Origin: a virus
Lineage: Duplodnaviria; Heunggongvirae; Uroviricota; Caudoviricetes
Virus record (IMG/VR): IMGVR_UViG_3300037312_000757
DNA: 64,000 nucleotides
Direction: 5' to 3' (one strand)
A program made the position numbers and the translations under genes. Positions 815 to 4,442 of this stretch are shown piece after piece. Below the pieces are notes generated by a model, which worked only from the letters and a program-made list of their open reading frames with translations, did not search any database and had not been told where the DNA came from. Within the stretch, counting starts at the first letter, position 1, and each line of letters starts with the position of its first letter.

Positions 815-822
815 TATTTATA
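815..822 (-). promoter_or_regulatory. T4-type late promoter TATAAATA for tail tube
   Basis: Exact T4 late consensus upstream of tube ATG; gp55 is encoded in this window. Confidence 0.8.
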
Positions 823-849: not shown

Positions 850-1086
850 AGATGAAAGTGCTCATGGTTTCCTCCACTACGTATTGGAGGCGGTTTTCTT
901 GCCGACCGGACAGGCAAACCATGAACATGTCCTAGTGGCCTATGCGTGTAATCTCACGCGTGCTTTTCTACCCCTCAGAGCTACCCGAGACCTACCATTG
1001 CGCGGACGGCTTCCGCAGCCTAGTCACCAGTAGAAAGCTTTATAGGTTCAGGACATACGTCCTTTGACCACTAGCTTTACAGCTTC
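850..1086 (-). ncRNA. Candidate structured non-coding RNA, family unrecognised
   Basis: At least 9 nested helices, G-U pairs favour the minus strand, own sigma70-type promoter, no credible long ORF. Confidence 0.65.
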
Positions 1087-1090
1087 GTGT

Positions 1091-1119
1091 ATATTAGCGA
1101 TTAGCTAATTGCCAATCAA
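1091..1119 (-). promoter_or_regulatory. Sigma70-type promoter TTGATT-N17-TAATAT
   Basis: -35 at 1114-1119, -10 at 1091-1096, 17-nt spacer, directly upstream of the structured region. Confidence 0.6.
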
Positions 1120-1523: not shown

Positions 1524-4403
1524 TTAGTGTGTCGCACCAGTATTCTGGATACGGACTGGCAAGTAGATGAATTCGATTGACTTGATTGGCTGGATGTAGA
1601 TATCGCACCACAATTCATTTGCGTCAATACGTGCTGGTGTGTTGTTTGTTGTATCGCAAACCACAGCATAGTCATTCAGCGCTTGCAGACCAACCAGGCC
1701 ACTCAGGAAGCGGTCAATTGCTGTCTTGAACGCATCACGTGTTTGCTGGTCATTCTGTTCGAACAGGAATGGCTTAGCAACCAGATCCAATTGATACTGC
1801 AGGTAAGCACAGAGACGTGAAACGTTCACACGATCTGTTGCTTCTGATGTTGGATCCAGTGTCTTCTGACCGTACACAACCAAACCGCGGTTTGGAATGT
1901 AAGCGATCGGGTTGATGCGGTTTTCGTACAGCGTATCACGTTGACCTGGGTTCAGGATAACTGTTGTGAACTCGTCATTGTTTGTTGAATCCAAGTAACC
2001 AACTGATGTTGCGTTTGAAACCAGACCACGCGTAAAGCCCGCTGGAGCAAACCATGGGTAAGCGATTTGGTCGTTGTACGCATATGTGTACAGTGCGATT
2101 GTTGATGGTGGAACCACAACGTTTGAACCGTCAATGTTTGTGCTGTAACCCCATGGGTAGTACAGAGCAACATGTGAGTTCTTTGTTACCAGACCATCAT
2201 CACCGTCTGTCGCCACATTGTTTGTATTTGATGCCCAACGTGAGACTGATGTGCTATCTGGCGCCAAACGTGCTGGTGTATCACCAACTACGAATGCCAC
2301 ATTCTTACAATCCGTGTTCAATGTGACCATGTCGCTCAGCAGTTCAACATAGCCTGGGCAAGCGATCAGGTTGAAATGCACAACTTCAGAACGGATGTCC
2401 TGGTTGCTTACAAACTGAGCTGCCAATGCCTTCACGATCATCTGGCGTTGTGCCTTACGGCCCATGTATGGGGAACCGTCAGTCTTGTTACCAGATGCTG
2501 TAACCCAACGACCAGCTGATGCAACCGCTGGGAATGTAGTGTCACCCACATCGTATGAGTTTTGTGTGAAGTCTGAAGCTGTTTCGAAACCACCCTTCTT
2601 GAACCAGTTTGGCTTCCATTCCTTCACGTTATATGTTGAGTAACGTGTGTTGAACAGCATCATGCCCAGTGGGTATGTACGTGCATCTGGAGCATCTGGA
2701 TCACAGTAAGCTGACAGTGTCAGGTCACCAGCTGCTGTTGAGTTGAATTGATAGTTTGAACCAGCACCTTGGTATGATGGACCGCTGTTTGCACGGGCAT
2801 CAGCAAATACCACACCGTATGGTGATGTCTGGTCGGCGTTGTCTACCAATGTCCACTCAGCGGTTGCTGCGGTGTAACGATAGATTGCTGGGTAGTTCTC
2901 TGTATCTGATGTGTCGATCCACAGGTCATTATCAACCAGGATTGTACCGTCACTTTGCAGTGATGGTTGTGAACCTGCCAGAATTACGCCCTTTGGATCT
3001 GTATTTGGATACAATGTGCGGTAACCAACCCAACGTTCACCATCTTGGTTAACCATCATGTCAACCTTGAAGTCTGTGTTGTACCAGAAAGTACCTTCAG
3101 CTGGTGTTGTTGTTGGTGCTGTTGCGCTTTGTTCAAATACCAGGTCGTTCCATGATGCGCCATCGTACATACGCAAATCGAAACTTGCTGTAGCGTAGCC
3201 ATTCAGTGGAGCGGCATTGTACTTTACGTACACTGAGTACGCTACCAGACCAGTAATTGAAGTTGAAGCTGTTGTGTCATCTGCGTACAGACCAACTGTC
3301 TTAGTTGTCCATGCACCTGATGATGTGCTGTACTGCTTAACAACGTAGTTCGCACCTTGGTTTGGTGTTGTTGTCTTGATCCAAACGTCACCCTGTGTGC
3401 TGCCTTGTGGAATCTTGTTGTTTGGCGCAAATGTGAGCTTGACGCTCTTAAATGTGCCAGCTGTCAGACCCATGAAAGCCAGTGGTGTGTTTGTGCTGTT
3501 AGCCAGAACCATATCAACAGCGTATGACAGGATGATTCGACCAGATGAGTCATATGATGCTGTGATCAGACCAGTTTGGTTTGAACCACCAATTGCTGTG
3601 TTGATTGCTGTAACGATACCAGCAGCAGATTGATCTGAACCAATAACGACTGCAACACCGTTAATTGTGAATGAGTCACCGTTTGCTACTGTTGCTGATG
3701 TTGAACCAGCTGGTGCTGATGCACGCAGAATGTTCTTCGCCAGTGTCCACGCCTTGGAACCAATTGGGTACCAAGAGCTAACGTTGTTTGTATTGATGCG
3801 CTCAAACATCACGAATGGTGCATTAGCTGTCACAATACCGAAGTCACCGTCCTGACCCAGTGTCGCGAGAGGGTAGCCGTTGCTATCGAGCTCTGATGCG
3901 TCACCATACACTGTGACTGCCTTAACGTTGAATGGGTTCAGGCTTGTGTCGCCTGAGCTTTGGAAAGCACCAAACAGAGTGTCAGCAGTGTCAAACCAGA
4001 AAGTACCATTAACTGGCGCGCCAGCTGGTGCTACTTCATTTGGTGACAGTTGAGCTAGGTCGATATCAGCGCGGAGTGCATAAATGCTGTTGCTGATGCC
4101 AAGATATTGATAAGCGGCGTGCAAGCCGAATTCGTTAAGTTCGGAACCGTAAACTGTTGTCCCGTTAACTGAGTCGAAATGTGGATTACCGAATGTCTGA
4201 ATTAGCTCACGTTGGCTAGTGATGTTGTACAACTGGCCAGCAGTACCCGGAACAGTACCAGGAGCTACGCCTGAACCTGTTGGGGAAGCTTTGTTTTCTT
4301 CTGTTGCGAAAACAATCAGAGGGACGGTACCAGTACCGGACGAAGTATAAAATGACTCGTCCGTAATCTCGACGTCTACGCCGGGACTGAGCAATGTTGC
4401 CAT
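1524..4403 (-). CDS. gp18: Contractile tail sheath protein with large inserted domains
   Basis: LLSPGVDVEITDES N-terminus; YPWFAPAGFTRG, RDTLYENRINPI, YGQKTL, DRVNVSRL, IQPIKSIEFIY; GGAGG SD. Confidence 0.95.
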   Translation of the reverse strand: MATLLSPGVDVEITDESFYTSSGTGTVPLIVFATEENKASPTGSGVAPGTVPGTAGQLYNITSQRELIQTFGNPHFDSVNGTTVYGSELNEFGLHAAYQYLGISNSIYALRADIDLAQLSPNEVAPAGAPVNGTFWFDTADTLFGAFQSSGDTSLNPFNVKAVTVYGDASELDSNGYPLATLGQDGDFGIVTANAPFVMFERINTNNVSSWYPIGSKAWTLAKNILRASAPAGSTSATVANGDSFTINGVAVVIGSDQSAAGIVTAINTAIGGSNQTGLITASYDSSGRIILSYAVDMVLANSTNTPLAFMGLTAGTFKSVKLTFAPNNKIPQGSTQGDVWIKTTTPNQGANYVVKQYSTSSGAWTTKTVGLYADDTTASTSITGLVAYSVYVKYNAAPLNGYATASFDLRMYDGASWNDLVFEQSATAPTTTPAEGTFWYNTDFKVDMMVNQDGERWVGYRTLYPNTDPKGVILAGSQPSLQSDGTILVDNDLWIDTSDTENYPAIYRYTAATAEWTLVDNADQTSPYGVVFADARANSGPSYQGAGSNYQFNSTAAGDLTLSAYCDPDAPDARTYPLGMMLFNTRYSTYNVKEWKPNWFKKGGFETASDFTQNSYDVGDTTFPAVASAGRWVTASGNKTDGSPYMGRKAQRQMIVKALAAQFVSNQDIRSEVVHFNLIACPGYVELLSDMVTLNTDCKNVAFVVGDTPARLAPDSTSVSRWASNTNNVATDGDDGLVTKNSHVALYYPWGYSTNIDGSNVVVPPSTIALYTYAYNDQIAYPWFAPAGFTRGLVSNATSVGYLDSTNNDEFTTVILNPGQRDTLYENRINPIAYIPNRGLVVYGQKTLDPTSEATDRVNVSRLCAYLQYQLDLVAKPFLFEQNDQQTRDAFKTAIDRFLSGLVGLQALNDYAVVCDTTNNTPARIDANELWCDIYIQPIKSIEFIYLPVRIQNTGATH

Positions 4404-4434
4404 GTGGGTATCCTCCAAAAATTACTTTGTAGAG

Positions 4435-4442
4435 TATTTATC
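4435..4442 (-). promoter_or_regulatory. Late promoter GATAAATA (sheath)
   Basis: NATAAATA upstream of sheath SD. Confidence 0.7.

Follow-up and report, generated by a model that had tools for sequence, protein, structure and literature searches.

A pseudoknotted structured RNA family of large phages, with a member in the gap between tail sheath and tail tube genes in a jumbo virus genome

Introduction

GOLLD and ROOL (RF01998 and RF03087), RNAs of complex fold and unknown function about 600–800 nt long, occur commonly in phages, in many cases beside tRNA genes. The pRNA of phage phi29, a structured RNA made from its own promoter, contains a three-way junction and acts as a particle in virion assembly. 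Complex-fold RNAs that combine many invariant junction nucleotides with a pseudoknot are rare, and past cases have been ribozymes, riboswitches or the cores of ribonucleoproteins. Phage T4 makes the species 1 and 2 RNAs (rnaC and rnaD), small stable RNAs encoded in line with tRNA genes. Among Y RNAs, YrlA carries a GNCGAAN0-1G motif close to its 5' end, within or next to the 5'/3' stem, and lies on the same strand as, and within about 4 kb of, a gene for Ro60, a TROVE-domain protein (PMC4201824). Here we describe a structured RNA of about 240 nt encoded on the minus strand at about 846–1090 of a 64,000-nt stretch of DNA (the window) from the Caudoviricetes record IMGVR_UViG_3300037312_000757, a 523,836-bp virus genome with direct terminal repeats. 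The RNA lies between the tail sheath and tail tube genes, and we compare it, its relatives and their surroundings with these systems.

The window RNA resembles the T4 species 1 and 2 RNAs in that four members of its family are likewise placed in line with tRNA genes. However, it has no sequence or structure similarity to them, and the window copy lies away from tRNA genes; the T4 tRNA region gave no match to the covariance model (CM) of the family even with filters off, and rnaC and rnaD are thus unrelated to it. GOLLD and ROOL are far larger, and Rfam gave no match to them. Like phi29 pRNA, the window RNA sits among structural genes, but the two are not homologous, and the members that lie away from structural modules speak against a role in assembly linked to tail genes. 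With the Y RNAs of bacteria and phages (YrlA and YrlB; Yrl1 and Yrl2 of Thermus phage phiLo), it has in common that it is phage-encoded, modular and structured, while its core exceeds the tRNA-like module of YrlA in both size and branching.

Fold and covariation of the RNA

A sequence-only reading of the window had proposed an unrecognised two-domain structured RNA on the minus strand of 850–1119, and region, strand and two-domain build all hold up. The minus strand of this interval folds to −92.6 kcal/mol, a moderate gain over dinucleotide shuffles (z = −2.79, 200 shuffles), while the plus strand reaches only z = −1.57, and the minimum-energy minus-strand fold already holds nearly all of the helices first read from the sequence. 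All 63 modelled pairs of the window RNA are canonical, eight of them G-U. When four distinct close sequences were folded together with RNAalifold, 29 of 63 pairs showed compensatory changes; among these close relatives the helices vary and the junctions do not.

The same fold is under selection throughout the family. In an alignment of 53 sequences, standard pairs fill 92.5% of pair cells, versus 58.4% after column shuffling and about 41% with slid partners, and double-sided compensatory changes are present in 56 of the 63 pairs; none of 500 shuffles reached any of the observed covariation values. An unbiased scan by mutual information with average product correction (MI/APC) returned, as its top 31 column pairs, only helices of the model and one pseudoknot pair. 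Family-wide, G-U cells exceed A-C cells by 274 to 32, which identifies the minus strand of the window as the functional strand and bears out the earlier remark that plus-strand A-C mismatches become G-U pairs on the minus strand. Relatives also carry indels of 1–2 nt that break every reading frame, and a coding role is therefore ruled out. We conclude that the RNA is genuine, that it is specific to one strand and that selection on its structure is strong.

The conserved core domain spans 143 nt (932–1074; all RNA features are on the minus strand) and was delimited by RNAalifold on the four sequences, by the 53-sequence CM alignment and by the MI/APC scan. Read 5' to 3', its closing stem P1 (1066–1074/932–940) is followed by hairpin H1 (1050–1063), the outer junction GAA-CCUA-UAAA (1039–1049), helix P2 (1029–1038/962–973), the strand GGUGAC-UAGG (1019–1028), hairpin H2 (1002–1017), the junction GCAAUGGUAG (992–1001), hairpin H3 (974–991) and, beyond the 3' strand of P2, hairpin H4 (944–959) with the loop AGAUUA. 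Covariation backs P1, H1, P2, H2, H3 and H4, that is, the domain 1 helices of the sequence-only reading except 939–943/1042–1046. For that helix no support was found, given that CCUA (1043–1046) covaries instead with UAGG (1019–1022) to form a pseudoknot, PK1. The Y-R pair at its centre (Y of CCYA, R of URGG) is C-G in 28 and U-A in 25 of the 53 sequences, with no exception; the search pattern left both positions free, and 4 of 13 chance pattern hits were mismatched there. This perfect covariation defines PK1 as a pseudoknot joining the outer and inner junctions. A modelled 3-bp helix, ACU/GGU, in the inner junction showed no covariation and 13 C-A cells, and we do not claim it.

Across the family the order of elements is P1, H1 (AGG..CCU), GAA-CCYA-UAA, P2, GGNGAC-URGG, H2, RUAARGGUA, H3, P2', H4 (loop ARUUNA), NAA and P1'. 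The widely conserved unit is thus a core of about 135 nt, a three-way junction inside a four-way junction plus the pseudoknot, in which about 35 junction nucleotides are invariant. P1 and H1 are absent in three members (L041, L082 and L087), which reduces the minimal core to P2, the inner junction and the pseudoknot strand.

The 3' domain varies by clade. In the window it is domain 2 (860–931), which was traced in four distinct sequences and not found beyond them: a three-way junction closed by a stem (916–926/860–870), with hairpin a (UUGCC/GGCAA, about 897–915), hairpin b (871–890) and a small pseudoknot, PK2, between the linker GACA (928–931) and the hairpin loop UGUC (909–912). Double-sided changes occur in 8 of 11 closing-stem pairs, 4 of 6 hairpin b pairs and 2 of 4 PK2 pairs, and the closing stem and both hairpins are backed by covariation, whereas a proposed mutually exclusive pairing of 927–933 with 1050–1056 is contradicted by the covariation of GACA with UGUC. 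A five-codon open reading frame (ORF) with a Shine-Dalgarno sequence in domain 2 was considered and rejected: its start reads AUG, GUG, ACG or GUG, and what resembles a Shine-Dalgarno sequence makes up the 3' side of a hairpin that covaries.

At the 5' end, the predicted AGCU-GUAA-AGCU hairpin with its GNRA tetraloop is present (1073–1084, from sequence and fold), and it covaries in relatives, in which the loop is GUAA or GCAA and, in L043, L072 and L107, the element reads CC-GUAA-GG; its last 2 bp vie with the first 2 bp of P1. At the other end, the U-rich tract ACUUUCAUCUGAAU (846–859), whose counterpart in the close relative L001 is UUUUUU, is probably the 3' end of the RNA or a weak terminator tract.

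Distribution and novelty of the family

Family members were sought with a covariance model built from four close relatives, together with a motif scan for the two most conserved strings in which two degenerate positions were left free. Among viral contigs, 33 of 48 new pattern hits were strong CM matches (E 1e-7 to 1e-29), and 38 of 42 pattern hits in metagenomes passed the CM. The family comprises 53 CM-confirmed copies on viral and metagenomic contigs and occurs in at least 45 phage contigs. Many carrier contigs are 200–608 kb long. Sinorhizobium phage Phosso carries the core at L018:975-1092 (CM E 1e-10). In 185,579 prokaryote species genomes, the strict pattern had no hit, and none of the 52 hits of a relaxed pattern passed the CM.

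Rfam 15 (4227 models, among them RNase P, transfer-messenger RNA (tmRNA), signal recognition particle RNA, 6S, riboswitches, small ribozymes, GOLLD and ROOL) gave nothing in the window gap at E ≤ 10, and a permissive search of six relatives and two long relatives gave only chance-level matches of 15–37 bits, far below thresholds. ARAGORN found no tRNA or tmRNA in the entire window. These results confirm the earlier impression that the RNA has no signature of tRNA, tmRNA, RNase P, signal recognition particle RNA or ribozyme. The gap DNA likewise had no match in a similarity search of 50,697 phage records. In the curated families and the papers searched we found no description of the RNA, though a 2023 catalogue of 8,495 unnamed IMG/VR RNA candidates of 29–151 nt may hold a fragment (PMC10690425). 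It is a previously uncatalogued RNA family, confined to phage contigs among the sequences searched. The features of a type III (ToxIN-like) toxin-antitoxin system, in which a tandem-repeat RNA antitoxin precedes the gene for an endoribonuclease toxin, were also absent from the window locus: the RNA is single-copy in its genome and non-repetitive, and the adjacent ORF, for which no related family or fold was found, lies upstream of the RNA and not downstream.

Gene neighbourhoods and transcription

At the left end of the window, every gene is on the minus strand. The RNA occupies a 340-nt gap between an orphan 109-aa ORF (1124–1453) and the tail tube gene (196–783; PHROG 4542, E 1.5e-59), and the tail sheath gene (1524–4418; PHROG 10581, E 4e-262) lies upstream of the ORF. 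By tube protein, the closest named relatives are Phosso (64% identity, 469 kb) and Agrobacterium phage Atu_ph07 (56%, 490 kb), and the gap is retained in five IMG/VR contigs whose tube proteins are 82–92% identical to that of the window.

Most family members lie directly after the sheath gene and ahead of the tube gene, and others are found elsewhere. In four loci the core adjoins tRNA genes on the same strand: in L041 it fills the gap between tRNA-Ser and tRNA-Thr genes (L041:3376-3635), in L082 it stands 20 nt before tRNA-Ala (L082:108-289), and in L088 (L088:5443-5722) and L102 (L102:428-777, 4 nt from the first tRNA) it directly precedes a tRNA array. Further copies lie near genes for ParB and DNA polymerase A, DNA ligase or an NYN-domain RNase. 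The copies in tRNA arrays and replication modules indicate an autonomous RNA gene, not a leader of a tail gene, in line with the stand-alone gene proposed at the outset.

The promoter element predicted for the RNA, TTGATT-N17-TAATAT, is present on the minus strand at 1091–1119, with a −35 hexamer at 1114–1119, a 17-nt spacer and a −10 hexamer at 1091–1096. It starts 5 nt past the stop codon of the small upstream ORF, and both hexamers hold their position in the relatives L001–L003. Across the family, sigma-70-like matches of at least 9/12 occur in 24 of 46 upstream regions, versus 15% of shuffled sequences, and promoter-like sites lie 5–25 nt ahead of P1 in about half of the members, often after the sheath terminator. 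In the window, a strong terminator after the sheath gene (1467–1502) has a 16-bp GC-rich hairpin, T-runs on both strands, which make it bidirectional, and a loop with TATAAT. Judging by the conserved sigma-70-like hexamers, the RNA may be transcribed by host polymerase.

This element is separate from the promoter of the tube gene, a T4-type late promoter motif (TATAAATA, 815–822, minus strand) that lies downstream of the RNA and bounds it. The window contains 14 copies of ATAAATA where 5.6 would be expected, including a site 17 nt upstream of the sheath start (4435–4441, minus strand) and 12 further sites; given this enrichment and the place before the sheath gene, a T4-type late promoter is the most likely assignment. 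In relatives, the block downstream of the RNA is nearly invariant, comprising (T/A)ATAAATA, a hairpin and the tube-gene Shine-Dalgarno sequence. With probable late promoters at the sheath and tube genes and a different, sigma-70-like signal of its own, the RNA is thus flanked by two late transcription units. A perfect palindrome, AGTTGGATATCCAACT (797–812), placed after the late promoter and before the tube Shine-Dalgarno sequence, is near-invariant even in relatives whose RNA helices have diverged, and it may be a hairpin of the 5' untranslated region or a protein-binding site.

Possible functions

Given that the fold, conservation, strand, modular build, phage-only range and unrelated neighbourhoods of the RNA are established, its role can be weighed. 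At somewhat better than even confidence, we read about 846–1090 as a stand-alone, trans-acting stable RNA of large lytic phages that would probably serve as a protein-binding scaffold, tether or decoy in RNA metabolism. The own promoter or tRNA operons, the exchangeable 3' module and a partial linkage to Ro60 and tRNA genes together point loosely to RNA metabolism and a protein-binding particle of Y-RNA-like kind. The RNA would be transcribed early from its own sigma-70-like promoter, or in some other phages made within tRNA operons and trimmed by tRNA-processing enzymes, and would end at the stem-closed 3' domain. It would act as a folded particle, not by base pairing with the adjacent tail genes: in the core, the surface formed by the invariant junction and the pseudoknot would bind a protein or enzyme that takes part in RNA metabolism, be it of the host or of the phage, and the exchangeable 3' module would add a second partner. 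In relatives that encode Ro60, this second module would be a large Y-RNA-like domain, following the modular logic of Y RNAs; in the window clade, the second partner could be the small basic protein encoded just upstream.

That 109-aa basic protein is a possible RNA partner, a candidate only. Its family evolves fast, has the N-terminus RNFKVRIHN and is encoded right before the RNA in eight loci, that of the window among them. The window protein has no Pfam or PHROG match and a single homologue among 5.8 billion proteins searched. Its confident AlphaFold model (predicted local distance difference test score, pLDDT, 83; predicted template modelling score, pTM, 0.75) found nothing below E 0.06 with Foldseek and a best Z of 5.6, within noise, with VIA-align.

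Several observations weigh against a trans-acting, protein-binding particle. The transcript ends and the stability of the RNA are predictions from sequence; the window promoter matches the consensus at 8/12 positions, below the threshold of a strict promoter scan; and no canonical terminator was called on the minus strand after domain 2, so that read-through into the tube gene is possible. The sheath-tube synteny shared by most members means that their co-occurrences are not independent. On the side of the partners, the 109-aa protein has no recognisable RNA-binding fold, a TROVE search of the full 523,836-bp genome found no match, and the RNA is missing from Atu_ph07 and the L009–L011 contigs, which do have Ro60; RNA and Ro60 are thus linked loosely, not obligatorily. 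Finally, a ligand pocket or an active site would account for the roughly 35 invariant junction nucleotides no less well than a protein-binding surface.

To a different account we give a low though not trivial chance: the core would be a functional RNA of a new class, and its active pocket would be that of either a ligand-sensing aptamer within a trans-acting RNA or a new ribozyme linked to the processing of tRNA or other RNA. Huge phages would carry this core as a portable module, fused to varied partner-binding domains, a Ro60-binding, Y-RNA-like domain among them.

Slightly less probable again is a cis-acting leader of the tube gene, in which the core would be a riboswitch-like aptamer or protein operator and the 3' domain an attenuator of early read-through. 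In a riboswitch, the 3' part of the aptamer overlaps an expression platform that directly controls an ORF downstream. In the window and many relatives, the RNA does share the strand of the tube gene and precede it by 50–150 nt, it has an aptamer-like size with invariant junction nucleotides, and the core is followed by a stem-closed domain and a U-rich tract (a pure U-run in L001). However, an independent late promoter separates RNA and tube gene, at least 10 loci have 1.5–4 kb of other genes with their own promoters between the two, and many members are not followed by an ORF within their own transcription unit. Some copies sit among tRNA genes or in replication modules with no tail gene close by, and the alternative pairing that a switch would use is unsupported by covariation.

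A ribozyme, self-cleaving for transcript processing or acting on tRNA precursors in phages with tRNA arrays, is unlikely in our judgement. The interleaving of P2 and PK1 with so many invariant junction nucleotides is typical of catalytic cores, and the direct adjacency to tRNA genes in four loci would fit a role in tRNA processing. Against this, no Rfam ribozyme family matched at E ≤ 10 and no cleavage site could be inferred. A likeness to RNase P (CUGAACC, GGGUAG) was rejected, given that the 7-mers shared with E. coli rnpB are not above those shared with shuffled rnpB (P = 0.13–0.49).

The Ro60 cassette and comparison with Y RNAs

A cassette that comprises two small genes and a gene for a Ro60 homologue with TROVE and vWA domains separates the RNA from the tube gene in at least 10 loci, that of Phosso among them, and places Ro60 0.8–1.8 kb downstream of the RNA on the same strand. 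Conserved non-coding sequence in these loci runs about 270 nt past the core, and the RNA there is about 350–450 nt long, consisting of the core, a hairpin and a second multi-branch domain. This extra 3' domain is about 170 nt long and stem-closed, with the conserved unpaired blocks GUUAAGUAG, RANCGAAU and GAUCGR; the whole RNA has 96 pairs, 55 of them with compensatory changes. Such long RNAs lie at L046:9908-10277 (−), L062:1557-1926 (+) and, in Phosso, L018:959-1335 (+), and also in L049, L058, L063, L068 and L045, and an nhmmer profile of the extra domain matches cassette-bearing loci only. RANCGAAU recalls the GNCGAA or CGAA Ro-binding motif of Y RNAs (PMC4201824, PMC12135203), and a search of the Ro60 loci against Rfam detected no Y RNA and no other family. 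The extra-domain RNA of these loci could be the RNA partner that jumbo-phage Ro60 has so far lacked.

For the window RNA itself, a strict Y RNA with Ro60 as its dedicated partner is less likely still than a ribozyme; as the window phage has no Ro60, the partner here would be the Rsr protein of the host. The proximity used to recognise YrlA (PMC4201824), within 4 kb upstream of Ro60 on the same strand, is found in at least 10 related loci, where the distance is under 2 kb and no other Y RNA is detectable near the Ro60 genes. In contrast, the window genome has no TROVE gene, and RNA and Ro60 each occur without the other, as in the Ro60-bearing Atu_ph07 and L009–L011. The window RNA also lacks the GNCGAA motif: it reads CACGAAG at 1083–1089, with the first base wrong, relatives read UAUGAAG, CUUGAAG or UUAUAG, and the 53-sequence core consensus has none, the CGAA element of the Ro60 loci being part of the extra 3' domain. 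Mimics of a tRNA T-arm or D-arm were not found by ARAGORN or Rfam, and the H4 loop is a 6-nt ARUUNA, as opposed to a 7-nt T-loop.

That the locus is no RNA gene at all, and that it folds by chance, acts at the DNA level or codes for an overlooked protein, as the moderate single-sequence z and the short ORFs overlapping the gap might suggest, has a negligible chance and is refuted by the covariation data, along with the strand-specific G-U excess, the frame-breaking indels and a mini-ORF whose start is not conserved and lies within covarying stems.

The family defines a new RNA class confined to very large phages, which shifts between gene neighbourhoods as a unit and has a cultured carrier in Phosso. 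A subset is fused to a second large domain beside phage Ro60, a protein that has hardly been studied in phages, and would offer a concrete candidate for its RNA partner. We also observed, directly upstream of phage Ro60 genes including that of Atu_ph07, a family of small proteins without a Pfam match that share the motif RWNNRxPGNGR(F/Y)EG; members are encoded at L018:2521-2844 and L019:2385-2705, with homologues in L045, L046 and L062.
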